Below, one piece after another: positions 11,562-30,586 of a stretch of 64,000 bases of DNA (position 1 is its first letter; each line of letters starts with the position of its first letter). Source of the DNA: an uncultured Patescibacteria group bacterium (GTDB lineage Bacteria; Patescibacteriota; Microgenomatia; UBA1400; PJMF01); assembly GCA_905478415.1 (NCBI GenBank), contig CAJQIG010000002.1, forward strand, positions 186,699 to 250,698, written 5' to 3'. Position numbers and translations under genes: made by a program. The notes under the pieces are model-generated. The model ran no database searches, was not told where the DNA came from, and saw only the letters and a program-made list of their open reading frames with translations.

Positions 11562-11618
11562 GGTATCTCCTTAATTCCGTCAAAGCGGGGTATAAGTAAT
11601 TAATACTTTTCGTGCATT

Positions 11619-11666: not shown

Positions 11667-11690
11667 AAGGTACTCTTTTTCTTCTTACAA

Positions 11691-12116: not shown

Positions 12117-12136
12117 ACGTTGCTTTTATATTATTC

Positions 12137-12748: not shown

Positions 12749-12782
12749 ATATTTTCTTTTTAGCTACAACTCCGGGCAGCAG

Positions 12783-12980
12783 TTATACCAATACAGCGAG
12801 TAATTTTGAGAAGATAAAATCTAATACTCCAATGTACAAACCAATTAAAATACTGACGCTGAGAACCAAGATTGTCTTTTCTTGTGTCTGTTCTCTTGAA
12901 GGCCAAGAAACCTTTTTGATTTCGCGGGTTACTTCCTTAAAGTACGTTGCAGGTTTGAACATAGGCAAGTATTGTAACAA
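12783..12980 (-). CDS. secE: preprotein translocase subunit SecE
   Basis: 65 aa; KEVTREIKKVSWPSREQ followed by one TM helix; conserved position upstream of nusG. Confidence 0.75.
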   Translation of the reverse strand: MLQYLPMFKPATYFKEVTREIKKVSWPSREQTQEKTILVLSVSILIGLYIGVLDFIFSKLLAVLV

Positions 12981-13022
12981 AAAAGATCAATTTTTGAAAT
13001 ACCCTAACTTAACGGGGCTTTT

Positions 13023-14753
13023 TTATGATTTATTTGTTGGGACTGTGGGACCACTTGGTGGAGTAATACCCTTACTTTTTACTCGTTCCATCATGCTGGA
13101 GGCAGGTTTTGACTCAGTCGCACTTGCTTGAGCAGGAGCTTGTGTAGCAGCAACCTGTTTTTCCAATGTTGCTTGGGTTGGCATACTTGCGGTTGGTGTT
13201 GTCATGCTGCGAGCAGTGGTTAATGGAGTCTCGATGTTTTGTCGTTTCTCAATATCTTGGGGTGCTGCTGGCTTTGTTGCAGGCGTAACTGGTGTTCCAG
13301 AGCTTTTTTTATTGCCGAGGGCTTTCTTTATAAGTAGCACAATCAGCGCTAGTATAAAGAGTCCGATGCCAGCTCCAATAACAATCAGTGGCAAGGCCGA
13401 ATCTGGTGTGCTCATCATCTGACGAAGGAGGTCGAGAGCACTTTCATTCTCAGCCAATGGAATATTTTCAAGAGTATCTGCTTTTTCCATACCAGGAATG
13501 ACGTTCTCTTGCTCAGGCGTGGTCTCTGTAGTTTCTGTTGTGGCTTCTTCTGTTGCATCGGTGGTTGTTTCTGCAATTTCAGCAGGTTTTCCAGTGTTCT
13601 CTGATTGTGAGTCTGCGCCCTTAGGAGCACTGTAGGTAGTAGAAATAATTGCAACTGTTGAAGGAGTGCAGCTGGTACTACTGACGTTTGTTGCCAGGCG
13701 GCAAGCTCCTTGATAACAGCGAAGATTGATGTCACAGTCGTCATTTGTCGAACAAGCAGTGTTACAGCTTAACGCTAAGTTTTCTTCTTCTTCTGTAGTG
13801 AGCGCAGTACAAGCTGTGTCCTCTGTATTTTGTGGATCTCGGCATTTATTATTCCAGCAGAAGAGGCCATCTTGGCATTCATTAGTGGTGGCACAGCCTT
13901 GGTTACAAGAGTACTCTGGGCCAGATACTGTGGTACTACATTGGTTGTTTGTTGGATTAATGGCTAAGCGACAGACACTTTTTTCACCTAAATCGTAGCA
14001 GCGTTGGTTAATACCGCACTCATCATTACTTGAACAATTGTCATTACAACTGACAACTTCGATGCCCCCAACTGCAGGTGATGGAGAAGGTGACGGAGAG
14101 ACATCTGGTGATGCTGATGGAGAAGGAGAGGGGCTCACTTCTGGATCATCGCTTGGTTCTTCGTTAACAGTTAGGGTGAGTGAAGGCACGTGCTTGAGTT
14201 TGTCCTCGAGAGGATTGCTTCCGTGGAGAATAGAGATTGATTCTTCACGATCAAAGTTAAAAGTAATGGTCCCTGCTTGCGTAGGAATGAAGCTGACTCT
14301 TAGAAAGGCCGCTGGTTCAGCGGTGGTAAATGGTTGTCCAATTTGGGCAGGAAGAGCGAGCGCTTGCACTAGGAAGCCATCTTGCGTACGTTCAACTTGT
14401 GTACCTGCTGCTTGTAGACCAGTGCCAGTAATGACATCGGCAGTGAGCGTATCAAAACTGTCTGAGATAACGTTAAAGAGAACTTGGATTCCATCCGTGG
14501 GGACTGAGTGGGTAGTGACTTTGAAGACAACCTCAGTTTCTTGACCAACAGTAATCTTGGTTCCAGGGGTAACCGTGTTTGAAATTTCGACAACGCCGTT
14601 ATCGATTGATGCTTGTCTTCGAATATCTTGAGGGTTTTGCAGAGGGGCTTGCACAAGGAGCAGGCCGACAACACTAAAAGCTACCGTCAAAACAGCCAGC
14701 AGGACGCCAGTTGTTGATGGTTTTTGAAGAAATGATTTTGTTGTCTTTTTCAT
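13023..14753 (-). CDS. cell-surface protein: signal peptide, cohesin-like beta domain, Pro/Ser linker, 3x six-cysteine modules, acidic T/E-rich region, C-terminal TM anchor and S/T/P-rich tail
   Basis: N-terminal hydrophobic leader. TKITVGQETEVVFKV...GIQVLFNVISDSFD resembles cohesin. PSPSPSASPDVSPSPSPSP linker. Three repeats with spacing Cx3Cx5Cx5Cx4-8Cx10C. C-terminal LPLIVIGAGIGLFILALIVLLI. Confidence 0.5.
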   Translation of the reverse strand: MKKTTKSFLQKPSTTGVLLAVLTVAFSVVGLLLVQAPLQNPQDIRRQASIDNGVVEISNTVTPGTKITVGQETEVVFKVTTHSVPTDGIQVLFNVISDSFDTLTADVITGTGLQAAGTQVERTQDGFLVQALALPAQIGQPFTTAEPAAFLRVSFIPTQAGTITFNFDREESISILHGSNPLEDKLKHVPSLTLTVNEEPSDDPEVSPSPSPSASPDVSPSPSPSPAVGGIEVVSCNDNCSSNDECGINQRCYDLGEKSVCRLAINPTNNQCSTTVSGPEYSCNQGCATTNECQDGLFCWNNKCRDPQNTEDTACTALTTEEEENLALSCNTACSTNDDCDINLRCYQGACRLATNVSSTSCTPSTVAIISTTYSAPKGADSQSENTGKPAEIAETTTDATEEATTETTETTPEQENVIPGMEKADTLENIPLAENESALDLLRQMMSTPDSALPLIVIGAGIGLFILALIVLLIKKALGNKKSSGTPVTPATKPAAPQDIEKRQNIETPLTTARSMTTPTASMPTQATLEKQVAATQAPAQASATESKPASSMMERVKSKGITPPSGPTVPTNKS

Positions 14754-14768
14754 AGGTGCCGATACTCC

Positions 14769-15743
14769 TTATTGAGTTACTGTGAATTTTCCTGCCATGA
14801 TTGAGTAATCTTTAATGTCTACACTCGAGTCGCAGTTTATATCTGCGGTAAGCATACTATTCCGAGTTAAGAATTCTCGACTTAAAATAGCAAAGTCTCT
14901 CAGGTCCACTTTTCCATCCGTATTGAGGTCTGGATTGTTAGCACATTTTTTAGCATCAAAGGTGTGTTGGTGTTTATTGTTGTCGTAGTTTGTTTCTTGG
15001 ATGATGGTTTCTCCATGGGTATCAACAGTATCAATACTGAAGAGAAAACGGTTTCTTTCCTGAGCTACGAAAGATCCGGAAAGTTTAGTCATGTAGCCAT
15101 CTTGGTGAGCAGTGAGCATGTTGTAGAAGACAAGATCTCCCGTTTTGTTTCGATTTGATGTGAGTGATACAAAAAAACTTGGAAGTTGTTCAGTGGGACC
15201 TTTCACCAGGTTTTGTAGAGCTACATCGACGCTGAAATAGTAGGTTTTACCAGTCATGAGTTCAGATTCTGGGACTTCGTCAGTGAGAGCTTCATCAAAA
15301 AAGAAGGTTGGGGTATCGAGTTGAGTAGTATCAGTGAAGAAAATATCTTCAATTGGCTGGGTGCAAACAATAATGGGATCACAAGGAGCGGCAAAACACT
15401 CAACCTGTTGGTATCGACATCCAGGAGGAAGTTCGCAGATTCTACGGCTTGCACAACTGCCTTCAGTCAAAGCACCTTCTGTCTCAAGACACACATCTAG
15501 GTTTTGGCACGGTTCTATAACTTCATCTCTAGAAACGGCAACAGTTGCAGTACTAGCATCGGAGCGTACATCGACGGACTTATTTGATTGAAGATCCTGA
15601 AGTACAAAAAATGATCCGATAATACCAGCTACAACTAAGAAGATACTAAATCCAAACAACGCGCCACTGAGTCCATTAGAAAGTCGAGTCAGAGGAGAGT
15701 TCGATAAAGATGTAGTTTTGTGCATAAAAGGCAAACTAGGCAT
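14769..15743 (-). CDS. membrane-anchored cysteine-rich surface protein with a C-terminal type-I dockerin domain
   Basis: N-terminal TM; 9-Cys cluster; tandem dockerin repeats DLNTDGKVDLRDFAIL and DINCDSSVDIKDYSIM. Confidence 0.55.
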   Translation of the reverse strand: MPSLPFMHKTTSLSNSPLTRLSNGLSGALFGFSIFLVVAGIIGSFFVLQDLQSNKSVDVRSDASTATVAVSRDEVIEPCQNLDVCLETEGALTEGSCASRRICELPPGCRYQQVECFAAPCDPIIVCTQPIEDIFFTDTTQLDTPTFFFDEALTDEVPESELMTGKTYYFSVDVALQNLVKGPTEQLPSFFVSLTSNRNKTGDLVFYNMLTAHQDGYMTKLSGSFVAQERNRFLFSIDTVDTHGETIIQETNYDNNKHQHTFDAKKCANNPDLNTDGKVDLRDFAILSREFLTRNSMLTADINCDSSVDIKDYSIMAGKFTVTQ

Positions 15744-15929
15744 ACTATGTAATAGACTGCATATACATAGTATCGAATTTTTGGCATCTTGTTTAGTCTG
15801 AATTTTTGTCGAGAGAGTATTGGGTGGGAAAAATGTTACAATGTATGAAGAAGTGTGATACTTTTAAGTATAGTGTAAAATGAAATAGTTAAAGACTATT
15901 ATTTTGCGTAACAATAAAAAGGAGAGCAT

Positions 15930-16814
15930 ATGACCGAACATCCAGTTAGAAAAGCCATTATCACTGATGCTGGTTTTGCCAGCCGATATCTTCCCATTAC
16001 TAAATCAGTGCCAAAAGGTATGTTACCACTTGGGAACAAACCAATTATGCAGTTTATGGTTGAGGAATGCGCTGAAGCGGGGATCGAAGAGATTATCATT
16101 GTGGCTACCCCAGAAGGAAAGCCAGTCTACGAAGATTACTTCAACAACAGTGTCAACAGAATTCGTAAGCAGCTAGCTGCTCAAGGCAAAGAAGATCGAT
16201 ACGAACCGGTGCAACATGTGCTTAATTTTCCAAAAATTGTAGTGATTACTCAAGACGAGAGTTTGCCATATGGGAATGGTTCTCCAGTAGCTTCTGCTCA
16301 AAAATTTGTCGAAGGAGAAGAAGCCTTTTTAGTTATGTACAGTGATGATGTCCTGTTTGGCGATCAAGGTGATGCTAAGACAATGGTTGATTTGTACGAA
16401 GCCAATCCAGACGTAGCCGGCATTATTATGTCTCAGGCAGTCAGCCCTAAAGTGGTTGATAAATATGGAATTATCACCTTTAAAGATGGATCTGATACAG
16501 ATCTCGACTTTATTGTTGAGAAACCTGATAAAGGAACAGAACCATCTCTCTTAGCTTCGTATGGACGATATTTGTTAACTCCAGCAGTGTTGCAATATCT
16601 TGTTCCAACAAATACTGGTAAGGATAATGAACTCTGGACTGTAGATGCAATTACCCAGGTTTCAAAAACAAAACGAATTTTAGTTGGTAAGACAAAAGGT
16701 GAGTGGATGACCACCGGTGATCCTGAAAATTACTTCAAGGCCCACCTTAAGTTTGTGCTTAATAACGAGAAGTATGGTTCAAAGGTGTCAGAGTGGGTCA
16801 AAGAGTTGGCCTAG
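15930..16814 (+). CDS. galU: UTP--glucose-1-phosphate uridylyltransferase
   Basis: KAIITDAGFASRYLPITKSVPKGMLPLGNKPIMQF nucleotidyltransferase motif. Confidence 0.8.
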   Translation: MTEHPVRKAIITDAGFASRYLPITKSVPKGMLPLGNKPIMQFMVEECAEAGIEEIIIVATPEGKPVYEDYFNNSVNRIRKQLAAQGKEDRYEPVQHVLNFPKIVVITQDESLPYGNGSPVASAQKFVEGEEAFLVMYSDDVLFGDQGDAKTMVDLYEANPDVAGIIMSQAVSPKVVDKYGIITFKDGSDTDLDFIVEKPDKGTEPSLLASYGRYLLTPAVLQYLVPTNTGKDNELWTVDAITQVSKTKRILVGKTKGEWMTTGDPENYFKAHLKFVLNNEKYGSKVSEWVKELA

Positions 16815-17158
16815 TTTGAGATTTTTGATCATCTTTTGAGATGCTTTGGATAGTTGTATACTGAACCTATTCAAGCAATTGAAGAACATTAATAAACAGT
16901 CCTGTGTGAGAGGTGCGAGTTTTCCCGAATAATTCACGTACGGGTTTATGGATGTTGAAATGCTCTGTGGAGTACTTCACTTCCTACCCACTTTAGTTCC
17001 TGTGGGAATTAGATGCCTCTCACGCAGGGCTGTTTTGTAGTTTAAAGAGACAAGTGTTTGATCTCTATTTAATTCTCAAGGACAACTTGATTTGCATCTT
17101 CAAAAACTTCGTGATGAATTCTTCGATACATAGATTTTAAGCGGGTAAATTACTTCAA

Positions 17159-17186
17159 TTTACAATTGAGTCCTATATGTTATAAT
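17159..17186 (+). promoter_or_regulatory. promoter with extended -10 (TTTACA-16-TGtTATAAT)
   Basis: upstream of the 17256 ORF. Confidence 0.45.
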
Positions 17187-17255
17187 ATAGGTGCTTAAAC
17201 ATAGTAATTATGTCCGGATTCTTATCTGGCATACCGTTCCTTAAAGGAGAAAACA

Positions 17256-17546
17256 GTGGTTACACCAAATCATTTAGATGTCACAGAAGTTGTTAAAACA
17301 GAAGGTGGTTTTCTAGCAACAAAATCAGTGAAAACCGTTTCGATTACCAACAATCATCAAACTGAGTCAGTTTCAGTAAGGTATTGTCATCACAATGTGA
17401 TGTCGCATTACAGCTACGGAAGCATCCCTCAACAAATAATCTGGCTTACTCCAGGTTTTAGCGTTGATATAATTATGGATCACGACGGCTCCATCGAGAT
17501 ATTCGGAAGTGGGATGCCAGTCAAGTTGATAACTCACTCGACCTAA
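17256..17546 (+). CDS. hypothetical small protein
   Basis: 96-aa ORF (GTG start) with a promoter upstream and a terminator downstream. Confidence 0.3.
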   Translation: MVTPNHLDVTEVVKTEGGFLATKSVKTVSITNNHQTESVSVRYCHHNVMSHYSYGSIPQQIIWLTPGFSVDIIMDHDGSIEIFGSGMPVKLITHST

Positions 17547-17571
17547 TACCTTAGTTTTTATGTTTAATGTA

Positions 17572-17603
17572 CAAAGCGCCATTTTTTATGGCGCTTTTTT
17601 TTG
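17572..17603 (+). terminator. rho-independent terminator
   Basis: gcgccat-ttttt-atggcgc followed by tttttttt. Confidence 0.6.
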
Positions 17604-17742
17604 AGGCAATAGACATGCAGGGTGTAGGGGAAACGCTAGGGTACTTTTGGTTACTATTTTATTGAATTGAGATTTAGTAAGCTATGTAGTACACTACATG
17701 TCTTGTACTTGGTACAATGAGAGTTGTAGTGCGTCTAGATTT

Positions 17743-17814
17743 GCCGAAGTGGCTCAGTGGTAGAGCACCATCTTGGTAAGATGGGGGTCACGGGTTCGAT
17801 TCCCGTCTTCGGCT
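17743..17814 (+). tRNA. tRNA-Thr (anticodon GGT)
   Basis: cloverleaf folded by hand: acceptor gccgaag/cttcggc, anticodon loop TTGGTAA, T-loop TTCGATT; no CCA encoded. Confidence 0.85.
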
Positions 17815-17941
17815 CAGAGTGGGTAGTTAACTTGAAAAGTTGCCGATTTGCTCAAGATCAAACTATGTCGAGGTGATATAATTTGTGAAGGTTTCTGGAT
17901 GAATAGTGCAGAGATTTTGTTTTTTAATGTCTTTGAAAGAT

Positions 17942-18023
17942 GCCAGGTTACTCAAGCGGTCAACGAGGACAGACTGTAAATCTGTTGGCTCAGCCTTCGT
18001 AGGTTCGAATCCTACACCTGGCA
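17942..18023 (+). tRNA. tRNA-Tyr (anticodon GTA), class II long variable arm
   Basis: acceptor gccaggt/acctggc, anticodon stem acaga/tctgt with loop CTGTAAA, variable arm ggctcagccttcgt, T-loop TTCGAAT. Confidence 0.85.
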
Positions 18024-18041
18024 CAACTATAATAGTAAGGT

Positions 18042-18115
18042 GCCACCTTAGCTCAGTTGGTTAGAGCGACGGTTTTGTAAACCGTAGGTCCAGGGTTCGA
18101 ATCCCTGAGGTGGCT
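18042..18115 (+). tRNA. tRNA-Thr (anticodon TGT)
   Basis: acceptor gccacct/aggtggc, anticodon loop TTTGTAA, T-loop TTCGAAT. Confidence 0.85.
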
Positions 18116-18192
18116 CAAGCATTTTGACTGGCGTATTTACGCATGGTCATTCGTTTGATATAATACCCGTCTGAAAAGAAAAGAAAGTTAGT

Positions 18193-18393
18193 ATGGCAAG
18201 CAAGAAAAAAGGTCCACGACAACACGTCGGCTTGAAGTGTAAAGAATGTAACGCTTTTGGGTACGTGACCGCATTTAATAAAAATAATGAACAACTTAAG
18301 AAACAAGCAGGAGGTTCTACTTTCCCGCTGAACAAGTACTGCAAAAAGTGTCGCAAGCACACGGAGCATGTACAGTCTAAGAAACTTAAGTAA
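18193..18393 (+). CDS. rpmG: 50S ribosomal protein L33
   Basis: 66 aa; CKECNAFGYVT...CKKCRKHTEH zinc-ribbon pattern. Confidence 0.85.
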   Translation: MASKKKGPRQHVGLKCKECNAFGYVTAFNKNNEQLKKQAGGSTFPLNKYCKKCRKHTEHVQSKKLK

Positions 18394-18417
18394 TCGTTTC
18401 ACCTACATAAAAATTGA

Positions 18418-18446
18418 GAACCGCACTGAAAAGTGCGGTTTTTTGT
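18418..18446 (+). terminator. rho-independent terminator after rpmG
   Basis: aaccgcac-tgaaaa-gtgcggtt followed by ttttt. Confidence 0.6.
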
Positions 18447-18502
18447 ACTGAAAAATAGTAGTAACATCCCATATGATATAATAGGAGTCTTAAATGAGTA
18501 CC

Positions 18503-18532
18503 AGCACCGGCCTTCGCGCCGGTGCTTTTTTT
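18503..18532 (+). terminator. GC-rich hairpin plus T-run (copy 1 of an identical 31-nt element)
   Basis: cagcaccggccttcgcgccggtgcttttttt. Confidence 0.5.
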
Positions 18533-18743
18533 GCTTATATATTGATCTTTTACACCTCATATGATATATTATGAGCTAGTTACATTGCTTTTTAAAATAA
18601 TAACTTTTGGCTACAACAGCGAATACATCATGCTTTTTACGAAGTCTGGGTGTGTTGACTGTTGTGGTCAAGAGTATTGTTACGATTGACTGCACAAAAA
18701 TTTTTTCAACTTTTTCCACCTAATAATCAAAAGGAGCAAGAAA

Positions 18744-19067
18744 ATGGAAAATGAAATGTTGCAGTTAGCTGGTGCTGAGGTTTCAGAACGTGTTGAGTTG
18801 GTAATTGCCGACCCCGAACATGATCGTCACCTGGATCTGTGTGGATTCCTACAAGTCGGACCAACATTGGTGGTCCGGATTCAGGAAGAAACCAGTATCT
18901 ACCAACTCCCCGATGAGTTGGAGTGGGATTGGGACGAGGTCGATTGCGGCCGCGAAACGGCTGGCCAGCTCATGGAGGCTGAGCAACTGCCCTATGAACT
19001 GACCAAGCACTTGGTCATTACAGCAGTCGCCACGAGCATTCTTGAAGCGTTTCTCAGCATGCGGTAG
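18744..19067 (+). CDS. hypothetical protein in a locally GC-rich (~53% GC) segment
   Basis: 107-aa ORF; composition clearly differs from the ~39% GC background; flanked by identical hairpins. Confidence 0.3.
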   Translation: MENEMLQLAGAEVSERVELVIADPEHDRHLDLCGFLQVGPTLVVRIQEETSIYQLPDELEWDWDEVDCGRETAGQLMEAEQLPYELTKHLVITAVATSILEAFLSMR

Positions 19068-19090
19068 AACCTTCAAGCAGCAATGTAGCA

Positions 19091-19121
19091 CAGCACCGGC
19101 CTTCGCGCCGGTGCTTTTTTT
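19091..19121 (+). terminator. GC-rich hairpin plus T-run (copy 2, identical to 18503..18532)
   Basis: cagcaccggccttcgcgccggtgcttttttt. Confidence 0.5.
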
Positions 19122-19124
19122 CGT

Positions 19125-19740
19125 AGCGAGGAAACTCCGGACAGTTCATCCATTGGAGCGAAGCGATAGTGTCCGGGGATGAACGCCTCATAGCACCGAA
19201 GGTGCTATGATGTCATCATGAAAACCCGGAAGTTAAATCATAGTGTGTATAAACACCAATATCACTTGGTATGGGGGACGAAATATCGTCGGAAATTTTT
19301 CAAGAAGTATGTTGGAGATGAATTTGAACATCTTCTATACGAATTAGTTAAAAAGAAGTATCCAGATTTATATATCGAAGCGGTTAATACAGACCAGGAT
19401 CATGTACATATACAGATAGAAATACCACCAACATATGCAGTGTCAGACGTAGTAAAGCGAATAAAATGGCATAGTAGTGTGTACCTCAAGAAGAAGTTCA
19501 AATTTATCGATAGAATGTATATAAATGGAAACATTTGGGGTGTGGGATATTACTCATCAACCATAGGATTGGACGAAGAAACAATTAGAAAATACATAGA
19601 ATATCAGGGGAAAGAAGAAGTCCTCCAGACACCGAGTCTATTTGAATAAAATTTTCATGAGAACTTGACCTTTAGGTCATTGCGAAGCAAATAGGAAACC
19701 CCGGACATTGGCGTAGCTGTCCGGGGAGGACGTCATTTTA
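19125..19740 (+). mobile_element. IS200/IS605-family insertion sequence (tnpA only) with subterminal hairpins
   Basis: left-end hairpin tccggaca...tgtccgggga (19136-19179) and right-end hairpin ccccggaca...tgtccgggg (19699-19727) in the same orientation flank a Y1 HUH transposase gene. Confidence 0.6.
19218..19649 (+). CDS. tnpA: IS200/IS605-family Y1 (HUH) transposase TnpA
   Basis: YHLVWGTKYRRK, HUH motif DHVHIQIEI, catalytic-Tyr region WGVGYYSSTIG; 143 aa. Confidence 0.8.
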   Translation: MKTRKLNHSVYKHQYHLVWGTKYRRKFFKKYVGDEFEHLLYELVKKKYPDLYIEAVNTDQDHVHIQIEIPPTYAVSDVVKRIKWHSSVYLKKKFKFIDRMYINGNIWGVGYYSSTIGLDEETIRKYIEYQGKEEVLQTPSLFE

Positions 19741-19791
19741 CAAAAACCAAAAAACACAACTAGTTTTCTCAAGAAAAACCGCTTAGTGGTA

Positions 19792-21108: not shown

Positions 21109-21218
21109 ATAGTTTTAGTATAGCGTATTGTGGTTTTTGTTTACATTAGGAAGAAAAGATTCCTTTTTAACCTGTTTTTTGGTAGGCTCAAGATAGTTTT
21201 ATATGAGAAGAGGATAGA

Positions 21219-21650
21219 ATGCTTGAACCAAACTCGTTTTTAAATGAAGGTCACCATGATCATGTGAAGGGGGTACTTGCAAAGTACGAGGACAAACTTT
21301 CAGTGGATGCACTTCGTGATGCTGAAGTACAGAAAAAACTAACCTACGCACTTGAACAGCAACTTCATCAATGGGAAACAATTACTAGCGGAGTCCAGAC
21401 TGCGTTAGATGCCGGGTTGTTTGCGCAAGGAGTTCCGAGAGAGTTTGTTGAATCGTTTTCTCAACAGTTAGAAACAAATAGTGCAAACTTAGACATACTT
21501 TTCAAAGCTGCTGAAGAGGTTAGCACGTTAGTACCCGATGAGAGCGAACTGGTAGATACTCTATCAGAGTACCAAGCCCGAATTAGGATTAGAATAGAAG
21601 AATGTCACTTAGCATTAAAAGAATTAAAAAAAGTCAAAGTAACAGACTAA
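21219..21650 (+). CDS. hypothetical protein
   Basis: 143-aa ORF, helical and acidic, no recognisable motif. Confidence 0.35.
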   Translation: MLEPNSFLNEGHHDHVKGVLAKYEDKLSVDALRDAEVQKKLTYALEQQLHQWETITSGVQTALDAGLFAQGVPREFVESFSQQLETNSANLDILFKAAEEVSTLVPDESELVDTLSEYQARIRIRIEECHLALKELKKVKVTD

Positions 21651-22150
21651 AGTGCTTGGAATATTCCCTCAAGGATGTGTTTAGCAGGCGCAGGATCACC
21701 ATCATCTGGTTCCAGAGTTAGGACGTATTTGCTGTGATCTGTGAGATCTTTGCTATCTATAAATGTATTAGTATAGGTGCCATCTTCACTTTTTTCAGCA
21801 ACCCCTGTGCTAATTATACTTAAAGGAGCAGGGCGTACAATCCAGCCTTCGTAGAAATCTGTACCTTCTGGGTCTGGCAAGTTTTCGAGTGGGGCAATCA
21901 TGCGGTACTCATTTTCAATAAATCCTGCCATAACCGTGCCAGAACCACCACTATTAGCTACGTCCTCAAGGAGTGCTTCGAACTGGTACTGTGTGAGTTG
22001 AGTATCGACTATTTGGTCTGGATTTTCAGTTGCATTTAGAGCTTCAGGAACTTCCGGAGGAAGTGATGGGGTTGCAGGAGTATTTTTTGTGCATCCAGCT
22101 ATCAGTATGCTTGTGGCTCCTAAAAGGAGTAAAAAGAGAGTTTTTTTCAT
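21647..22150 (-). CDS. lipoprotein (start at internal Met)
   Basis: MKKTLFLLLLGATSILIAGC signal peptide with lipobox. Confidence 0.5.
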   Translation of the reverse strand: MKKTLFLLLLGATSILIAGCTKNTPATPSLPPEVPEALNATENPDQIVDTQLTQYQFEALLEDVANSGGSGTVMAGFIENEYRMIAPLENLPDPEGTDFYEGWIVRPAPLSIISTGVAEKSEDGTYTNTFIDSKDLTDHSKYVLTLEPDDGDPAPAKHILEGIFQAL

Positions 22151-22316
22151 GTAGTAAAAGTATAGCAGGTTACTGTAGATAATAAAAAAAGGCGGCGAGT
22201 TCGGTGACTCGCCGCTAGTAGTAACAGAGAATCTAGTCGTTTGGAGAAACAAGAAAGAACGGTCCAAGGATACTTACAGCACTCAGCACTCTCAATAAAT
22301 GATAGTATATTCTGAA

Positions 22317-22646
22317 ATGTCAAAAAAACCACATATTTTAGTCATCTGTTCGCGAAACAAGAAAAGAAGTCTGACTGCTGAGAGAATGTATAAAAATGAC
22401 CAGCGTCTTGTAGTACGTTCGGCAGGAACGAGTCCAAGAGCGATACACAGAGTTACGAAGCAGGATATTACTTGGGCAGATAGTATTTTGTGTATGGAAA
22501 ATAAGCATCGAGATATGCTACAAAAAACATTTGGCAAGAGTAGTCTGCCTACGCTTTGGGTAGCAGATATAGAAGACGAATATGAATATATGGATCTAGA
22601 ACTTGTCGAGATGTTACAGGTTGAGATTGAAAGAGTTATTTCATAA
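22317..22646 (+). CDS. low-molecular-weight phosphotyrosine phosphatase / arsenate reductase-like protein
   Basis: MSKKPHILVICSRNKKRS contains the CX5R(S) P-loop; small size. Confidence 0.4.
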   Translation: MSKKPHILVICSRNKKRSLTAERMYKNDQRLVVRSAGTSPRAIHRVTKQDITWADSILCMENKHRDMLQKTFGKSSLPTLWVADIEDEYEYMDLELVEMLQVEIERVIS

Positions 22647-22726
22647 TAAACGAAGAGCCCCGACAAATCTTCCTCTCACACAGAGCACATTTGCAAATAT
22701 ACTCACGGAGTCTCTATACTAGTAGT

Positions 22727-23362
22727 ATGTCTAACTTTGAAAGAGTAGTGGTGTTTCTGTTGTTTATTGTATTTTGCTTGATCAGCACGCTCTTTGTGCT
22801 TTTTTTTAAGACGGATGCCATCCCAAAAACTATTTCTCAAACTAGTGAGGGCAAAACTGAGAATACAGTTGCTCCATCTCTGCAACAAACTCAAGCGTTA
22901 CTCGAGCAAGTAGATGCATTAGCAGCAAGTTCATCAGCTCTATTAGAGAGAATTCAGATACTTGAAGAAGATTTGCAAAAAAAAACTAGTGTGCAAAAAA
23001 GTGCAGCTCCTGCCTTTCAAAAACAAATTATCTATATTGGATCTGCCAGTACGAAGGAGCGCGAGTGGACGGATTCTGGGGTAGAAGTGACATTGGATAG
23101 TGCTGATTATCCCTCAAATGTCACAGCTGCATTTGAAGTTGGCCTCTCGATTGTGGGAGGAGAGGCTTGGGCCAGGTTGCTCAACAAGACTACTGGAGCT
23201 ATACTGGCTATTACGGAAGTGTCACACGCCTCGAGTACGACGACTTGGAAAACATCCCCAGTATTTACACTACACCCCGGAAAAAATACGTACATACTCG
23301 AGATAAAGTCTAGCAGTGGTGAAACGGCCAGCTTTTCTGGGGCCCGGGTGGTGATAGAGTAA
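22727..23362 (+). CDS. membrane-anchored hypothetical protein
   Basis: N-terminal TM (VVVFLLFIVFCLISTLFVLFF), coiled-coil segment, beta-rich C-terminus. Confidence 0.4.
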   Translation: MSNFERVVVFLLFIVFCLISTLFVLFFKTDAIPKTISQTSEGKTENTVAPSLQQTQALLEQVDALAASSSALLERIQILEEDLQKKTSVQKSAAPAFQKQIIYIGSASTKEREWTDSGVEVTLDSADYPSNVTAAFEVGLSIVGGEAWARLLNKTTGAILAITEVSHASSTTTWKTSPVFTLHPGKNTYILEIKSSSGETASFSGARVVIE

Positions 23363-23497
23363 GTGGAACCTATTTATAGATTAATATCTGTTTTACCCTC
23401 AACATAATCACGAATTAAAACCCCAAGCAGAGTTTGATATGGAATATTTTTTGCCTTTAAACATACTAGAGTATTTTTACTACACAGACAGGAAATC

Positions 23498-24115
23498 ATG
23501 AGTGAGAACCCCCTGGATAGGATAAAATATAGGCAGTTCCAAAACACCTTAGAGAACAGAGGTGGAAGCGAGACGATTATTCGTAGTATGTCTAACATAC
23601 TAAAAAAGATGGCGGAAAATAACGTTTCGACAGTATTTTTTCTTGATCGATCAGCAAGACCTTTGGCCTATTTAGCCAAGGAAATGTGGCAGGTTATGTA
23701 CCAGGGACGTGAATTTCCCGCGGTACGATTCATAAATATTGGAAAAGAGACGAGTCAAAAAGATATTAATCAATCTGGTGGAGTAGGTGATATCTATTCG
23801 ATTCCAGACGATGGCACTATAATGATTATTGACGAATTTGTGATGCATGGGCACTCTCTCAGGAGAGCCAAAGAGCTCTTAGATAAGTCTTTTCCTAATA
23901 GAGAATTTATTACCATTTCACCGTACTTACATGAATTTAGAGAGTTGCCGGCGATCTTCAAGGGTATTGAAGACAGGTCAGTTGAAGGTCCGATGAAGTT
24001 TGTTGCGCAGCCTCACTCAGATCAAAGTTCAGTTGAAGCACGAATAAAATTGAGGAAATACCTCAAGGAGTTTGTCAAAAATAATGCTGAAAAAATTAAG
24101 GAGACTACGGAGTGA
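23498..24115 (+). CDS. phosphoribosyltransferase-fold hypothetical protein
   Basis: TIMIIDEFVMHGHSL resembles the PRTase type-I PRPP-binding motif. Confidence 0.3.
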   Translation: MSENPLDRIKYRQFQNTLENRGGSETIIRSMSNILKKMAENNVSTVFFLDRSARPLAYLAKEMWQVMYQGREFPAVRFINIGKETSQKDINQSGGVGDIYSIPDDGTIMIIDEFVMHGHSLRRAKELLDKSFPNREFITISPYLHEFRELPAIFKGIEDRSVEGPMKFVAQPHSDQSSVEARIKLRKYLKEFVKNNAEKIKETTE

Positions 24116-24123
24116 CTAATTTT

Positions 24124-24154
24124 GCGGGGACTAGTGACGGATGTTCGAACCTAT
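24124..24154 (+). repeat. cassette-boundary repeat R1 (degenerate copy of the tRNA-Trp 3' end)
   Basis: gcggggactagtgacggatgttcgaacctat; reverse complement ggttcgaacatccgtcactagtccccgc aligns with the tRNA-Trp 3' end ggttcgattccctctggccctgc. Confidence 0.6.
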
Positions 24155-24155
24155 A

Positions 24156-24419
24156 TCAGTATTGATCATGGTTTACTAAATCAAAAAAGATGTAAACATC
24201 ATCTTCTTTAATTGCCAATGCTCTCAAATCTCCTTTTATTCGAATAGCATACTGACTAGATCTTTCACCTTTTAATCTATGCAAACGCAACCCCATATGA
24301 TAGGGATTTTCTTTAAATTTTTTAAACTGTTTTCTAAAAATTTTATCCAAAAGAGGATTTTTATTCTTAAACTTTACTACTTTTCTCTTAAATGACTCTG
24401 TATAAACAACTTTTATCAT
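24156..24419 (-). CDS. type II toxin, RelE/ParE superfamily
   Basis: 87 aa; RLHRLKGERSSQYAIRIKGDLRALAIKEDDVYIFFDLVNHDQY matches the RelE-family C-terminal pattern; overlaps the upstream antitoxin by 4 nt. Confidence 0.55.
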   Translation of the reverse strand: MIKVVYTESFKRKVVKFKNKNPLLDKIFRKQFKKFKENPYHMGLRLHRLKGERSSQYAIRIKGDLRALAIKEDDVYIFFDLVNHDQY

Positions 24420-24673
24420 AAAGAGTCAAAAAATTCATCAACATTAATCATTTCGTGGGTTTTTCCCAAACGATGCTCTTCCAAAGCCTTTAAGCCACTT
24501 TCTTCTGTTTTCTTACTCATTTTAAAAGTTGGAACTTCATTTTTCAAAATTTCTTCTGAGGCTTTACTTATAAAAAAACGAATAGTTTTGGGTAAATTAT
24601 ACCCAAATTGAGAACCATAATTTTTTAAAAGGGTAGCTTCTTGAGTTGTAAGAGTTAATTGAACTTTAGTCAT
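24416..24673 (-). CDS. putative antitoxin
   Basis: 85-aa ORF immediately upstream of and translationally coupled to the toxin. Confidence 0.4.
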   Translation of the reverse strand: MTKVQLTLTTQEATLLKNYGSQFGYNLPKTIRFFISKASEEILKNEVPTFKMSKKTEESGLKALEEHRLGKTHEMINVDEFFDSL

Positions 24674-24738
24674 ATGTATTAGTATTATATTATAAAATCA
24701 TTGTTTTGTAAATACTTTAATACTACTTTTGATATTTC

Positions 24739-24769
24739 TTGGGGATTAGTGAAGGATGTTCGAACCTAT
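24739..24769 (+). repeat. cassette-boundary repeat R2
   Basis: ttggggattagtgaaggatgttcgaacctat; abuts the stop codon of the YoeB-like gene. Confidence 0.6.
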
Positions 24770-25044
24770 TTGTACACCTGATCATGAGTTCCAAAACTAA
24801 AAAAAACAATTTTAGACATGTTTCCATCCTGATTATAGTAATAAAGTAATCGATGGGACATATCTACAGAAATACTCCAACTCTCTCTTTGACCTCCGCT
24901 CAATTTGTGGAGTCGTAATGACGGATGATTTTTGTTCTGTTCGAACAATACTAACTGCTTTTTAATTTTTGTGAATAACTGTGTATCGTTTTTTTTAACT
25001 CTTTGCAATTGCTTCAAACATTTTGGTGAAAACGCAATTTCCAT
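24766..25044 (-). CDS. yoeB: type II toxin, YoeB/Txe family
   Basis: HPSLRLHKLSGGQRESWSISVDMSHRLLYYY...FGTHDQVY matches the YoeB pattern (KHNLSGFWSRRI..EHRLVY..RYHY). Confidence 0.65.
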   Translation of the reverse strand: MEIAFSPKCLKQLQRVKKNDTQLFTKIKKQLVLFEQNKNHPSLRLHKLSGGQRESWSISVDMSHRLLYYYNQDGNMSKIVFFSFGTHDQVYK

Positions 25045-25046
25045 TG

Positions 25047-25307
25047 CTATAGATCCTGGAGCAACTTGCCAACGTCATTAGTTTGGATTAAATCTCCAGT
25101 TTTTTCTGCCTCTACAGCCTCTTTAAGATCGTTAGTTGATTGACTGGACATTTCAAAAACAGGATAGTCAACGTCTTGAACATCATTTATCACTAAATTT
25201 CTGATGTAAGCTGATAAGCTAAGACCGTATTTATTAGCTTTAGTCTGCAAGTAACCTTGCAACTGGACTGGTAATGTAACTCTAATTTGAGTAGTTTGTG
25301 TTTGCAT
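25047..25307 (-). CDS. putative antitoxin paired with the YoeB-like toxin
   Basis: 86 aa; 2-nt gap to the toxin gene; IRVTLPVQLQGYL N-terminus. Confidence 0.45.
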   Translation of the reverse strand: MQTQTTQIRVTLPVQLQGYLQTKANKYGLSLSAYIRNLVINDVQDVDYPVFEMSSQSTNDLKEAVEAEKTGDLIQTNDVGKLLQDL

Positions 25308-25370
25308 AAAGCCATTATAGTCTAATTAAAGCATTTATCAAGTACTAATCAAGGCTATTTTGTGTACTTT

Positions 25371-25401
25371 TCAGGGCCTAGTGAAAAATGTTGGAACCCA
25401 T
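25371..25401 (+). repeat. cassette-boundary repeat R3
   Basis: tcagggcctagtgaaaaatgttggaacccat; reverse complement contains ggccctg identical to the tRNA-Trp acceptor 3' strand. Confidence 0.6.
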
Positions 25402-25429
25402 ATCAACTGTAAGTACATGACTTCATTTG

Positions 25430-26032
25430 CTATTTATCAAAAACAACAACAATGCCATCAATGCTTTTCTTAAATTCAGAACATCTTTGATCATTATATC
25501 TTTGGGTGATTTTATCCATTACTTTGGAATCAACCCCGTTAAATTCCCAAGAATCACTTAGCCTGCTGCTAAAAAATAATGTATCGAATTTAATGACAAT
25601 TTTAAGTGTTTTTAAACTATCAGGTGAAAGATTAAAAAACCAATGAATTAAATCATTAAAAGCAGCATGATGACAACCTTCTACAGGAGTTGTTTCCCCA
25701 CCCATTAACATTACTTCCAATAAACTTGCCCCATCTTTTGACAATAATGCCGTTAAGTCTTCGGGGTTGATAATATCATAGTCATGACCATATTTTTTTC
25801 GTCTTTCTAAAGCAATATTGGGATGATTGTTGAGATAGCTAGAGACAACATGTGGAGCATTTACATATAGACCCCAATGTGCATCTTTTGACTTAAAACC
25901 TGTTACACATATATTTAAATTATACCTTTGATCATCAAAAATTGCTTGCATAGCCTCTCGAGCAGGTTCTTTATAATAAACTTCTCTAATAGGGTGTATT
26001 GCTAAAGCAACGCTTAGATTTTCATTTAACAT
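25430..26032 (-). CDS. hypothetical protein (cassette cargo)
   Basis: 200-aa ORF, no recognisable motif. Confidence 0.4.
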   Translation of the reverse strand: MLNENLSVALAIHPIREVYYKEPAREAMQAIFDDQRYNLNICVTGFKSKDAHWGLYVNAPHVVSSYLNNHPNIALERRKKYGHDYDIINPEDLTALLSKDGASLLEVMLMGGETTPVEGCHHAAFNDLIHWFFNLSPDSLKTLKIVIKFDTLFFSSRLSDSWEFNGVDSKVMDKITQRYNDQRCSEFKKSIDGIVVVFDK

Positions 26033-26107
26033 ATTTACCTCTATTCTCTTCTAAAATATCTGTTTATATTTTTAATTCAGCATTCAGCAAACTTATATAA
26101 TAAATAC

Positions 26108-26142
26108 AAGGGGCTTGTTACTTGAGGGATGTTCGAACCTAT
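26108..26142 (+). repeat. cassette-boundary repeat R4 (5' half diverged)
   Basis: ggggcttgttacttgagggatgttcgaacctat. Confidence 0.5.
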
Positions 26143-26152
26143 TTTAAGCTCG

Positions 26153-26806
26153 TCACTTCTTCCTAGCAACCACCACAAAATATTTTAATACTCCAAAATA
26201 GCGAAGTGTTTTTTCTTCAACTACTATATTGCCCGCAGCCTTTATGTAATTTGATAGCTCTTTTTGTTTATACATCACATCATAAGGATGATCTAATATT
26301 ATTCTAAGAAGTTTACCTAGCGGAGATTCAAACGTTTCAATTGAAAAATCCTCCATAATTATCAGTCCCTTAGGTTTTAAAGTTCTCGTTATCTCTTTAA
26401 CTGCTTTCTTCCATTCTGGAATGTGATGAAGAACTCCAAAGTCAAACACTGCATCAAAGGTATTGTCTTTGAACGGCAATTTTGTCGTACTTGCTACTTG
26501 AAAATCAATGTTTTTATTAGAATACTTTCCTTGAGCGATACTAATCATTTTTGAATCAAGGTCAGTAGCAATGATTTTTCTGGGAGAAAAGTGCTTCATG
26601 ATAAGTTGACTACCATATCCACTACCACATCCAATTTCTAATGTCTTATTTATCTTCCCTGGATTAACTAACTTTCTGAGTCGTGGTATCTCCAAAGTAC
26701 TTTGAAACAACCGACGCATTGGGTTATTCATTAGTAGGAATTCAATAGTATTGAGAATCATGAATGTAGTATACCATGTGATTAAAAAGAAACCATTTAT
26801 AGGCAA
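26153..26806 (-). CDS. class I SAM-dependent methyltransferase (true start possibly at an internal Met near 26731)
   Basis: LEIGCGSGYGSQ motif I and downstream methyltransferase motifs. Confidence 0.65.
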   Translation of the reverse strand: MPINGFFLITWYTTFMILNTIEFLLMNNPMRRLFQSTLEIPRLRKLVNPGKINKTLEIGCGSGYGSQLIMKHFSPRKIIATDLDSKMISIAQGKYSNKNIDFQVASTTKLPFKDNTFDAVFDFGVLHHIPEWKKAVKEITRTLKPKGLIIMEDFSIETFESPLGKLLRIILDHPYDVMYKQKELSNYIKAAGNIVVEEKTLRYFGVLKYFVVVARKK

Positions 26807-26819
26807 ATATTGCTGTTTT

Positions 26820-26850
26820 GCAGGGATTAGTGAACTATGTTGGAACCTAT
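26820..26850 (+). repeat. cassette-boundary repeat R5
   Basis: gcagggattagtgaactatgttggaacctat; starts with gcaggg as does the plus-strand tRNA-Trp 3' end. Confidence 0.6.
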
Positions 26851-26851
26851 T

Positions 26852-27178
26852 TTACCTTTCTCGTAAAACAAAACTCAATTTAATACTATCGTTTAACTCA
26901 ACTTTTTCTTTGTTTCTAACCTTTACTGGTAATGCAATGAAGTGTGTACCATCACCCATAGGGAGAAATGATGTTTTCCAACTACTGCTACCTACTTTTG
27001 CAGTTATAGCTACCAAACCCCTATCTAAAAGATGTTTAGTCTCATTCGTATATTTTTTAGGAACTCTCACATAATGCCAACCCTTTTTTTGGGGAAATAG
27101 TTCTACTTTTCCAGATATTGCAAATTTTTTCTTGGTTAATAATGGGGTCAAATTAGACATATAAAAAATATAGCCCAA
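26852..27178 (-). CDS. hypothetical protein (cassette cargo)
   Basis: 108-aa ORF. Confidence 0.4.
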   Translation of the reverse strand: MGYIFYMSNLTPLLTKKKFAISGKVELFPQKKGWHYVRVPKKYTNETKHLLDRGLVAITAKVGSSSWKTSFLPMGDGTHFIALPVKVRNKEKVELNDSIKLSFVLRER

Positions 27179-27180
27179 AT

Positions 27181-27510
27181 TTACATCTCATGAACAGGAT
27201 AAACACTCACCGTACTACCATCGTTATCCATTATCACTGGATGATCTTTTAATAAAGACTGGGCTGCTTCTAGGCTCTCAGCTTGAACTATTCCATATCC
27301 TGTTACATCATCTTCTTGAAGCTTTGAACCATCAACAGAAGTCACATGTTGAGGCCCAACTGGATTTCCAAAATCAACTACAGCATCAACATGAGTTTCT
27401 TTCCACTTCATCCAAACACCCATAACTCCTTGTACTTCTTCTTCTGACATTGACGCAAATTTTTCCATTGCTTCTTTAGGTGAGTGATAAATTAGAAGAA
27501 ACTTTTTCAT
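27181..27510 (-). CDS. hypothetical protein, possibly a YciI/Dabb-like alpha/beta barrel
   Basis: 109 aa; MKKFLLIYHSP...GYGIVQAESLEAAQSLLKDHPV pattern. Confidence 0.35.
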   Translation of the reverse strand: MKKFLLIYHSPKEAMEKFASMSEEEVQGVMGVWMKWKETHVDAVVDFGNPVGPQHVTSVDGSKLQEDDVTGYGIVQAESLEAAQSLLKDHPVIMDNDGSTVSVYPVHEM

Positions 27511-27552
27511 AGCGTGATCCTTTACTACATGTTTTTATTCTTTATCTTAACA

Positions 27553-27573
27553 TAATTTAGAACCTAATTTATT
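27553..27573 (+). repeat. weak sixth copy of the cassette-boundary repeat (R6)
   Basis: ataatttagaacctaatttat vs consensus ..atgttsgaacctatttta. Confidence 0.25.
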
Positions 27574-27623
27574 GGGGATAAGTTAACAAAAAAAGAACTA
27601 TAAATAGCTCTAATTCAAAACTG

Positions 27624-27694
27624 CAGGGCCAGAGGGAATCGAACCCCCGTCAAAGGTTTTGGAGACCTCTATTCTACCGCTGAACTATGGCCCT
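27624..27694 (-). tRNA. tRNA-Trp (anticodon CCA)
   Basis: acceptor agggcca/tggccct, anticodon loop CTCCAAA, T-arm ggggg-ttcgatt-ccctc. Confidence 0.85.
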
Positions 27695-28646: not shown

Positions 28647-28659
28647 GTATCTGAAAAAG

Positions 28660-28692
28660 GAAAGGCCCTAGTTTTACACTGGGGCCTTTTTG
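28660..28692 (+). terminator. rho-independent terminator
   Basis: aaaggccc...gggccttttt. Confidence 0.55.
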
Positions 28693-28776
28693 CGTCTCAA
28701 ACCCAATCGCCACCAATCTCAAGTATTTTGTTCAAAACTAGCGTATACTACAGTTGTATCAATCTATATCACTAGT

Positions 28777-30570: not shown

Positions 30571-30586
30571 GCGGTACAATGCAGAT

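Follow-up and report, generated by a model that had tools for sequence, protein, structure and literature searches.

A cassette array docked at tRNA-Trp in the rearranged secE neighbourhood of a Patescibacteria group bacterium

The DNA described here is a stretch of 64,000 nucleotides (the window) from an uncultured Patescibacteria group bacterium (assembly GCA_905478415.1, contig CAJQIG010000002.1, positions 186,699 to 250,698). Its GC content is 0.42, and the genomes closest to it are metagenome-assembled genomes labelled Candidatus Pacebacteria or Patescibacteria. Within this window the gene secE and a gene for tRNA-Trp are separated by 14,643 bp, and this gap is probably a mosaic of five layers of different age. 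Adjoining tRNA-Trp is an array of small gene cassettes, each of which terminates in a conserved site whose last bases are also those of the tRNA gene. We tentatively consider this array to belong to an undescribed gene-capture system of Pacebacteria, integron-like in function but built differently, a reading that we hold as possible rather than probable. In such a system, the 3' end of tRNA-Trp would be the permanent attachment site, the cassette sites would be linear, non-hairpin sequences of 36-40 nt that end in CCCTGCA, and at least some cassettes would have a promoter of their own. The recombinase would be encoded elsewhere, perhaps as a housekeeping enzyme of the Xer-like type, and recombination at this site may also have been responsible for an ancient break between tRNA-Trp and secE.

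Cassette sites and their association with tRNA-Trp

The array differs in composition from the rest of the window (GC 0.325 vs 0.423), and its GC skew is opposite to that of its flanks. There are five copies of the repeat core ATGTTSGAACC at 24.1-26.9 kb, where 0.07 would be expected by chance, and every cassette terminates in a conserved site of 36-40 nt (sequence AAATAGGTTCnAACATCCTTCACTAGTCCCTGCA; consensus across genomes AAATAGGTTCnAACATCCTTCACTAGTCCCTGCAAA), which begins either with or inside the stop codon of the preceding open reading frame (ORF). The final bases of the sites, CCCTGCA, are those of the tRNA-Trp end, and the last 8-10 nt of the consensus equal the 3' end of this gene (..GGCCCTGCAAA). 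This tRNA end (..GGCCCTGCA) is both the anchor of the array and the shared core of the cassette sites. As in a tRNA island, the array runs from the 3' end of the tRNA gene (from 27622), and tRNA-Trp is intact, its end regenerated.

For comparison we used the 80 closest species, which were obtained by one NusG scan of GTDB species representatives (NusG identity 71-94%) and whose loci (L numbers) were mapped for synteny by tblastn and ARAGORN. Extra DNA of the nearest relatives was fetched via homologues of a 438-amino-acid (aa) ORF that is predicted to encode a glycosyltransferase; L082 is the genome of L002 and L084 that of L055. When a hidden Markov model of the site was run over 1.47 Mb of the relatives' loci (nhmmer, E<0.01), all matches lay 3' of tRNA-Trp and on the same strand, with the copies in L002 and L083, whose tRNA-Trp is beyond the available sequence, placed via L082. 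Among the related species with 1 kb or more of flank, about 30 in all, 13 have the site family 3' of tRNA-Trp, as do L082-L084. When JGI metagenomes were scanned with a degenerate 28-mer, 60 loci were found, with arrays of up to 10 repeats, and the repeats are 3' of and co-oriented with tRNA-Trp in all 20 of the metagenome loci that contain this gene. In other metagenomic lineages (L094, L126, L138, L096, L106) the same repeats are found in the orders rpmG / tRNA-Trp / array and tRNA-Tyr / tRNA-Thr / tRNA-Trp / array. These varied contexts indicate that the repeats are linked exclusively to tRNA-Trp itself, and not to the gene order of Pacebacteria.

The cassettes are 0.35-2.2 kb long, carry one to three ORFs that are nearly all co-oriented with the tRNA, and have a GC content below that of their host. 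Those of the relatives encode GNAT, Fic/DOC, HAD, HIT, histidine phosphatase and CopG/RelE proteins as well as methyltransferases. One toxin-antitoxin cassette, TA2 (24771-25366), has a promoter predicted from its sequence (TTGATA-17-TATAAT) and occupies the fourth place of the array in the window, the second in L128 and L139, and the first in L041, immediately next to tRNA-Trp. The boundary of this cassette is sharp, in that the homology always starts at CCCTG(C/A)AAA and the upstream DNA is either the tRNA (L041) or a repeat (window, L128, L139 and L115). Cassettes also assort independently: TA2 and a second toxin-antitoxin cassette, TA1, are adjacent in the window and in L127, and two other cassettes are located between them in L115 and L129. 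These two cassettes of the window (cas4 and cas5) have 79-87% nucleotide identity to cassettes in genomes with core genes that are only 64-74% identical, and the nearest core relatives (78-81% identical) carry neither TA1 nor TA2.

Two other sequences recur at cassette junctions. A terminator-like hairpin (AAATCCCGAATGGGATTT / GAACCCGAATGGGTTC) is located directly after a cassette site or the tRNA-Trp end (L029:487-524 and 2219-2256; also L023 and L035), and a leader (CAnCAATTTTTGCCTATAAAT) forms the 5' start of several unrelated cassettes, including the methyltransferase cassette of the window (about 26795-26815). Perhaps the functional site spans the junction, or these sequences are shared promoter or insulator modules.

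Alternatively, ordinary islands with an integrase, similar to tycheposons or prophages, might have integrated serially and later lost their integrases and most of their genes, so that the repeats would be decayed attL/attR scars in the form of partial tRNA-Trp copies. This origin is in keeping with an array that starts at the tRNA 3' end and with the GGTTCGA...CCCTGCA that repeat and tRNA share, and tandem islands separated by partial tRNA copies are documented for the tycheposons of Prochlorococcus (10.1101/2020.12.28.424599). However, there is a single repeat family that is 85-95% conserved across genomes, and its consensus is unchanged where the T-arms of tRNA-Trp differ, which argues against the sites being copies of the host tRNA. 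Repeat and tRNA truly have only about 8-10 nt (CCCTGCAAA) in common, and the remainder of the 36-nt site can be aligned with the tRNA only by a 5-nt gap. In addition, the repeat has no Rfam match in permissive mode, not even to a partial tRNA, the units are small throughout, and no remnant of an integrase was detected in about 100 cassettes. A test for a phage attP with a 28-nt degenerate pattern gave no matches among the 2.9 million viral contigs of IMG/VR. We regard decayed scars as an unlikely source of the repeats.

Gene order in relatives and candidate inversions

A preliminary description of this DNA placed secE and tRNA-Trp on the same strand 14.6 kb apart, put rpmG and the tRNA-Thr-Tyr-Thr cluster on the plus strand, and listed surface proteins, a galU copy, an IS200 element, a GC-rich ORF, a glycosyltransferase and the cassette array as lying between secE and tRNA-Trp. 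These positions are borne out by ARAGORN, Rfam and Pfam, and every item of the list was verified. The description also took the whole 14.6 kb for accessory DNA, which the synteny comparison contradicts for 13.0-21.1 kb. With nusG set to plus, the dominant order in the relatives is tRNA-Trp(-) / 438-aa ORF(+) / rpmG(-) / tRNA-Thr(TGT)(-) / tRNA-Tyr(-) / tRNA-Thr(GGT)(-) / galU(-) / variable surface-protein genes(+), 0-6.8 kb / secE nusG rplK rplA(+). The secE-nusG-rplK-rplA operon (10845..12980, minus strand in the window) is found in 75-80 of the 80 loci, the Thr-Tyr-Thr tRNAs and rpmG (17743..18393) have the same order and strand relative to nusG in 59-64, and galU, a core gene of the clade, has the same place and orientation in 64. 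The order and orientation of galU, the three tRNAs, rpmG and the glycosyltransferase hold for practically all relatives, including those with as little as 71% NusG identity. Of the supposed accessory DNA, about 8 kb, more than half of the gap, is ancient conserved synteny, and what was misread from a single genome as a neighbourhood split by 14.6 kb of accessory DNA is revealed as such by the 80 related species.

The composition of 13-27.6 kb (GC, GC at third codon positions (GC3) and GC skew) is foreign in the array and in orf107, a GC-rich ORF with a GC content of 0.52 against a background of 0.43, and is native in the remainder. The genes at 13-21 kb (galU, the tRNA cluster, rpmG, the glycosyltransferase and the surface proteins) have native GC, GC3 and replication-strand GC skew; the synonymous-codon likelihood is uninformative for the AT-rich cassettes. 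The insertion hotspot that had been proposed for the tRNA-Trp 3' flank stands in so far as the tRNA 3' end is the exact starting point of the arrays, but it does not extend beyond that flank.

In all 47 related species wherein tRNA-Trp is visible, this gene is on the opposite strand to secE. Its distance is 51-1899 bp (median 141 bp) to the 438-aa ORF and 3.2-9.6 kb (median 6.5 kb) to secE. This head-to-head order indicates that the separation of tRNA-Trp and secE is a trait of the whole clade. The corresponding genes of E. coli K-12, thrU-tyrU-glyT-thrT-tufB-secE-nusG-rplK-rplA-rplJ-rplL-rpoB, are all in one orientation, and P. aeruginosa has a tRNA-Trp-secE-nusG operon (PMC3909081). The canonical neighbourhood, tRNA(Thr-Tyr-Thr)-tuf-rpmG-tRNA-Trp-secE-nusG-rplKAJL-rpoBC, is recognizable here by its intact secE-nusG-rplK-rplA and by the internal order Thr-Tyr-Thr-rpmG-...-Trp, which is kept on one strand in the relatives but is wholly reversed relative to secE, so that the halves are head-to-head throughout the clade. 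Because this order is intact on one strand, a single inversion suffices. The clade-wide order would be best explained by one ancient inversion in the clade ancestor, which would have set the block galU / tRNA-Thr-Tyr-Thr / rpmG / GT-B glycosyltransferase / tRNA-Trp head-to-head with secE-nusG-rplK-rplA and would have had one breakpoint at the junction of tRNA-Trp and secE, at the tRNA-Trp 3' end. In Thermococcales, integrase-mediated chromosomal inversions are reported between tRNA-borne att sites (PMC5495485). This is a possible precedent for the first inversion, since in both cases a breakpoint is at a tRNA gene that is also targeted by mobile elements; the difference is that nothing here shows a recombinase as the cause of either inversion.

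The canonical arrangement is altered in other respects as well. The glycosyltransferase gene is located between rpmG and tRNA-Trp, tRNA-Trp and rpmG are not directly upstream of and co-oriented with secE, and neither tuf nor rplJ, rplL or rpoB is adjacent. No tuf gene is present between the Thr-Tyr-Thr tRNAs and rpmG, and there is no rplJ, rplL or rpoB among the ORFs scanned in the 64 kb window. A NUDIX hydrolase gene (10361-10783) comes after rplA instead of rplJ-rplL-rpoB-rpoC, and in L082 this place is taken by a cytidylate kinase gene. These two observations suggest that the classical cluster is broken downstream too in this clade.

The tRNA-Trp gene of the window has the same orientation as secE, and 6.5 kb separate it from the 438-aa ORF. 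The order in L082 and L084 is HAD(-) / metallo-beta-lactamase fold (MBL)(+) / about 1-2 kb / tRNA-Trp(+) / array repeats(+) / variable genes / 438-aa ORF(+) / rpmG(-) onward, with tRNA-Trp located 14.5 kb (L082) and 13.6 kb (L084) from secE, and the MBL / tRNA-Trp / array part of the window recurs in a metagenome contig of 1.19 Mb (L128). In the more distant L067, L072 and L029, a flank of MBL/HAD/M50 and orf334 is followed by array(-), tRNA-Trp(-) and 438-aa ORF(+). The orientation of the far flank (28080..32371) is constant whichever way tRNA-Trp points (L067, L072, L082, L084 and L128), which argues that this flank bounds a second inversion. A low-molecular-weight (LMW) phosphatase-like gene points the same way relative to tRNA-Trp in L012 as in the window and so belongs to the inverted segment. 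In a neighbour-joining tree of NusG, L11, L1, the glycosyltransferase and GalU, the window, L001 and L002 are nested deep within lineages that have the other arrangement, and therefore the arrangement of the window is derived. Comparison of the relatives' sequences thus shows a second inversion in the genus-level subclade of the window, wherein tRNA-Trp, the array and neighbouring genes were flipped between the glycosyltransferase and the orf188/orf334 flank. This event put tRNA-Trp back on the strand of secE.

GC skew was considered as a sign of recent inversion and was rejected, since only the skew of the array is reversed and the co-inverted genes at 21.2-24.1 kb are native. Arrays everywhere have positive GC skew on the coding strand, which matches the flanks in relatives without the second inversion and clashes with them in the window and L082. 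This suggests that the skew of the array reflects the origin of the cassettes and not the age of the inversion.

The preliminary description offered another history, wherein tRNA-Trp and secE kept their orientation and were pushed apart by stepwise insertion at the tRNA-Trp 3' flank, with one inversion of rpmG and the Thr-Tyr-Thr tRNAs. The co-orientation in the window, the cassettes inserted at the tRNA 3' flank and the IS200 element would all be expected from it. However, tRNA-Trp is next to the glycosyltransferase and on the opposite strand in each of the 47 other species, the arrangement of the window is nested and derived, and the genes at 13-21 kb, which have a native composition, keep their order throughout the clade. 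Moreover, tRNA-Trp must end beyond rpmG, which a single inversion of the rpmG block cannot achieve. Stepwise insertion is very unlikely to account for the gap. An inversion was involved, as had been stated, but at least two are needed, and the shared strand of tRNA-Trp and secE is a coincidence of these two inversions rather than a retained feature.

Proposed cassette capture and its comparison with known systems

The cassettes were most likely inserted by site-specific recombination across the CCCTGCA core that is shared by the cassette site and tRNA-Trp. Small circular units would have been inserted one after another at the tRNA-Trp 3' end, in the orientation of the tRNA, whose end would have been rebuilt each time. 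From the arrangement of the sites we infer this circular intermediate, a crossover point within the core where strands would be exchanged, and a recombinase that must act in trans because none is encoded nearby.

Sedentary chromosomal integrons and CALINs (clusters of attC sites lacking integron-integrases) share many of these features. There is a one-directional array of small cassettes, mostly with 1-2 ORFs and often a single one, with a terminal site at the stop codon, and the cassettes are assorted independently, so that the same one is found at different positions. The fixed entry point, the low GC content and the mix of toxin-antitoxin pairs, GNAT proteins and proteins of unknown function are also alike. 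However, the array has no adjacent divergent intI gene for a tyrosine recombinase, and the divergent neighbour in the relatives is the GT-B glycosyltransferase. The sites of 36-40 nt are conserved in sequence rather than structure, unlike attC sites, which are imperfect inverted repeats with R''/R' boxes that form a hairpin as single-stranded DNA; when the five sites were folded as DNA on both strands, they formed no hairpin (z -0.5 to +1.2). Further differences are that the tRNA gene 3' end takes the role of attI, that TA2 at least has its own promoter, and that the host belongs to the candidate phyla radiation (CPR)/Patescibacteria. With no intI nearby and unfolded sites, the array was rejected as a classical integron.

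Tycheposons and other tRNA islands are similar in their integration at a tRNA 3' end that is rebuilt, in tandem stacking, in the presence of a hypervariable island at a fixed core position, and in the inversions associated with the island. Here, by contrast, the units are only 0.35-2.2 kb long and include neither an integrase of their own nor a replication module, and they are separated by a dedicated site family instead of partial copies of the host tRNA.

The Xer-dependent dif/pdif modules of Acinetobacter plasmids are small, often carry toxin-antitoxin genes, have short conserved sites and probably rely for their movement on a housekeeping tyrosine recombinase that is encoded elsewhere and acts in trans. 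The sites that flank these plasmid modules are in alternating orientation, whereas those described here are direct repeats that are chromosomal and tRNA-anchored and have no clear 11-6-11 dyad.

The literature searched contained nothing relevant on CPR integrons or tRNA-anchored cassette arrays, and an integron-like array without a nearby integrase seems not to have been described before. CPR/Patescibacteria have tiny genomes with few recognized mobile elements, and yet many Pacebacteria have arrays docked at tRNA-Trp, wherein up to ten or more exchangeable mini-cassettes carry toxin-antitoxin pairs, acetyltransferases, Fic toxins and small enzymes. Because these arrays follow the logic of integrons without adjacent intI and hairpin attC, standard integron finders would miss them. 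The short and defined site (a 36-nt arm plus the CCCTGCA core) makes the system directly testable, and identification of the recombinase would provide both a new model for gene capture and a route for horizontal transfer in this uncultured radiation.

Another possibility is that the 36-nt element acts at the RNA level, as a transcriptional 3' signal for instance a processing site in the 3' untranslated region (UTR) or an imitation of the tRNA 3' end, and that the array grew by duplication and homologous recombination. A signal of this kind would fit the position of the element, which in each cassette begins with or inside the stop codon of the ORF and is co-oriented with tRNA-Trp, and it would suit cassettes that have promoters of their own, as TA2 at least does. 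The lack of predicted structure and of Rfam matches argues against it, as do the same cassettes with different upstream partners and a sharp homology boundary at the core. In addition, the element is found only downstream of tRNA-Trp in 1.8 Mb, never after other genes. We consider a purely RNA-level role highly improbable.

Several points weigh against capture by site-specific recombination and against the inversions as described. No recombinase was found by Pfam in the window (main ORFs at 9-32.4 kb and 30 larger ORFs in the rest of the 64 kb), none is recurrent in a Pfam census of 175 ORFs from array loci, and none was found in a crude motif screen of 1.79 Mb, so the catalytic step is putative. 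There was no excised circle, empty site or within-species difference in cassettes among conspecific contigs, which are 99.95-100% identical, and current activity is therefore unproven. Some relatives that lack an array share the terminator hairpin directly after tRNA-Trp, which makes the exact insertion point of cas1 uncertain. The second inversion has its breakpoints elsewhere than at the cassette-site core and is thus left unexplained by the cassette system, and the direction of the first was judged from distant outgroups (E. coli and Pseudomonas) rather than from sister Patescibacteria.

Two candidates for the recombinase were rejected. Matches to rve (DDE) are sporadic insertion sequence (IS) fragments, located in two metagenome ORFs and one in L082. 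The 438-aa ORF was considered as a hidden recombinase and was ruled out by its predicted fold. It has no sequence match in Pfam, NCBIfam or PDB, and all of its 924 homologues are named hypothetical. Its AlphaFold2 model (pLDDT 87.4, pTM 0.88) has the two Rossmann domains of a GT-B fold similar to MurG and MGD1, with MGD1 (4x1t, 1.7e-8) and MurG (3s2u) as the best Foldseek matches; the probability is 1.0 for 4x1t, 4wyi and 3s2u, and many further GT-B enzymes are found below these. This predicted glycosyltransferase gene is a core gene of the clade and in most relatives is the direct divergent neighbour of tRNA-Trp.

A mis-assembly or binning chimera, which the metagenome origin and the break of several conspecific contigs by the IS200 element might suggest, is scarcely credible. 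Every junction, including those of IS200 and the array, is spanned at 100% identity by a 394 kb scaffold that is identical to the window (ENA ERZ23498634, SOLA22-1 scaffold_2), a 38 kb contig and others, which come from three or more projects. In addition, 17-23 contigs of at least three assembly projects match the parts of 9.8-31.1 kb that they cover with 99.95-100% identity, and genus-level relatives from other studies share the arrangement.

Feature map, lineage-specific DNA and neighbouring genes

Table 1. Features of the window, with positions numbered from its first nucleotide
Feature	Position	Strand	Evidence or remark
rplA (L1)	10845-11561	-	Pfam
rplK (L11)	11691-12116	-	Pfam
nusG	12137-12748	-	Pfam NusG
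secE	12783-12980	-	Pfam SecE, E 5e-19
Cys-rich membrane protein, 576 aa	13023-14753	-	Surface-protein slot
Dockerin-domain protein, 324 aa	14769-15743	-	Dockerin_1, E 3.5e-7
GalU-like UTP-glucose-1-phosphate uridylyltransferase	15930-16814	+	NTP_transferase 1e-27; TIGR01099 E 2e-55, under the curated cut-off
tRNA-Thr(GGT)	17743-17815	+	ARAGORN + Rfam
tRNA-Tyr	17942-18024	+	ARAGORN + Rfam
tRNA-Thr(TGT)	18042-18116	+	ARAGORN + Rfam
rpmG (L33)	18193-18393	+	Pfam
IS200-family composite insertion, 1.3 kb	18502-19740	+	Y1_Tnp + hairpins
Left-end hairpin copies, 31 nt	18502-18532 and 19091-19121	+	100% identical repeats
orf107 (GC-rich, 107 aa)	18744-19067	+	No family match
IS200 tnpA (Y1 transposase)	19218-19649	+	Y1_Tnp E 9e-31
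IS200 right-end hairpin	about 19699-19727	+	Sequence inspection
GT-B (GT28-like) glycosyltransferase, 438 aa (predicted)	19792-21108	-	AlphaFold model + Foldseek
orf143	within 21219..24115	+	ORF
RskA_C-domain protein	21647-22267	-	Pfam
LMW-phosphatase-like protein	22299-22646	+	Pfam
orf223	22691-23362	+	ORF
Phosphoribosyltransferase (PRTase)-like protein	23498-24115	+	Pfam
Cassette array, five co-oriented cassettes	24114-27622 (3.5 kb)	-	Begins at base after tRNA-Trp
cas5	24728-24114	-	Antitoxin + YafQ-like toxin; site 24157-24119
cas4	25360-24729	-	RHH antitoxin + RelE/YafQ-like toxin; site 24771-24734
cas3	26101-25361	-	200-aa unknown protein; site 25403-25366
cas2	26809-26102	-	S-adenosylmethionine (SAM) methyltransferase; site 26144-26103
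cas1	27622-26810	-	YCII + DUF1905; site 26852-26816
tRNA-Trp(CCA)	27623/4-27694	-	ARAGORN + Rfam
orf188 (far flank)	within 28080..32371	+	ORF
orf334 (far flank)	within 28080..32371	+	ORF
Metallo-beta-lactamase-fold (MBL) gene	29917-30579	-	Pfam
HAD gene	30515-31219	+	Pfam
M50-like gene	31715-32371	-	Pfam

The gap between rpmG and the glycosyltransferase gene is 1399 bp in the window, compared with a median of 63 bp in 57 relatives, and it contains an IS200-family insertion that is absent from this locus in all 80 relatives. The element has the Y1 HUH transposase and subterminal hairpins that are characteristic of the IS200/IS605 family. There are two copies of a GC-rich, terminator-like hairpin of 31 nt with a T-run (CAGCACCGGCCTTCGCGCCGGTGCTTTTTTT) that are 589 bp apart on either side of orf107, just ahead of tnpA, where no identical repeats would be expected by chance. 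These data show an IS200 insertion in the lineage of the window, and the element, with its GC-rich passenger ORF, entered between rpmG and the glycosyltransferase gene. The orf107 and its paired hairpins look like a duplicated IS200 left end with a captured passenger. Several conspecific contigs end near this element.

There are also traces of IS elements at the arrays of other loci. Homologues of IS200-type transposases are found in or beside arrays at L125:1411 and L131:2760, and an rve (DDE) fragment occupies the first cassette position in L082 (3388-3624), where the related L083 has an extra repeat. Such elements appear to erode or remodel arrays.

Between the glycosyltransferase gene and the distal end of the array are about 3 kb (21219..24115) with five lineage-specific genes of native GC content and skew. 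Neither L082 nor L084 has these genes at the corresponding place. A homologue of the LMW-phosphatase-like gene adjoins the 3' side of tRNA-Trp in L012, and a homologue of orf223 adjoins the glycosyltransferase gene in L003.

The two genes at 13023..15743 (minus strand) occupy a syntenic slot between secE and galU, and their homologues are found at the same place in L082, L084 and L001. Amino acid identity to these homologues is 49-57%, compared with 88-94% for GalU and NusG, which shows that the slot holds fast-evolving surface-protein genes. The slot is 156-6807 bp long in the relatives (median 2646 bp) and 2950 bp long in the window, and its composition is native.

A second NTP_transferase gene (GalU/RmlA-like, 285 aa) is located at 57809-58666, some 41 kb from the galU-like gene. 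The approximately 0.9 kb between galU and tRNA-Thr(GGT) (16815-17742) contain no convincing ORF, and the median length of this gap in the relatives is 381 bp. L082 has a 298-aa ORF in the gap, and the window may hold a decayed gene there. The L1 protein has an N-terminal extension of roughly 45-120 residues that is rich in Ala, Glu and Lys, and the Pfam Ribosomal_L1 match starts at residue 123 of 238.

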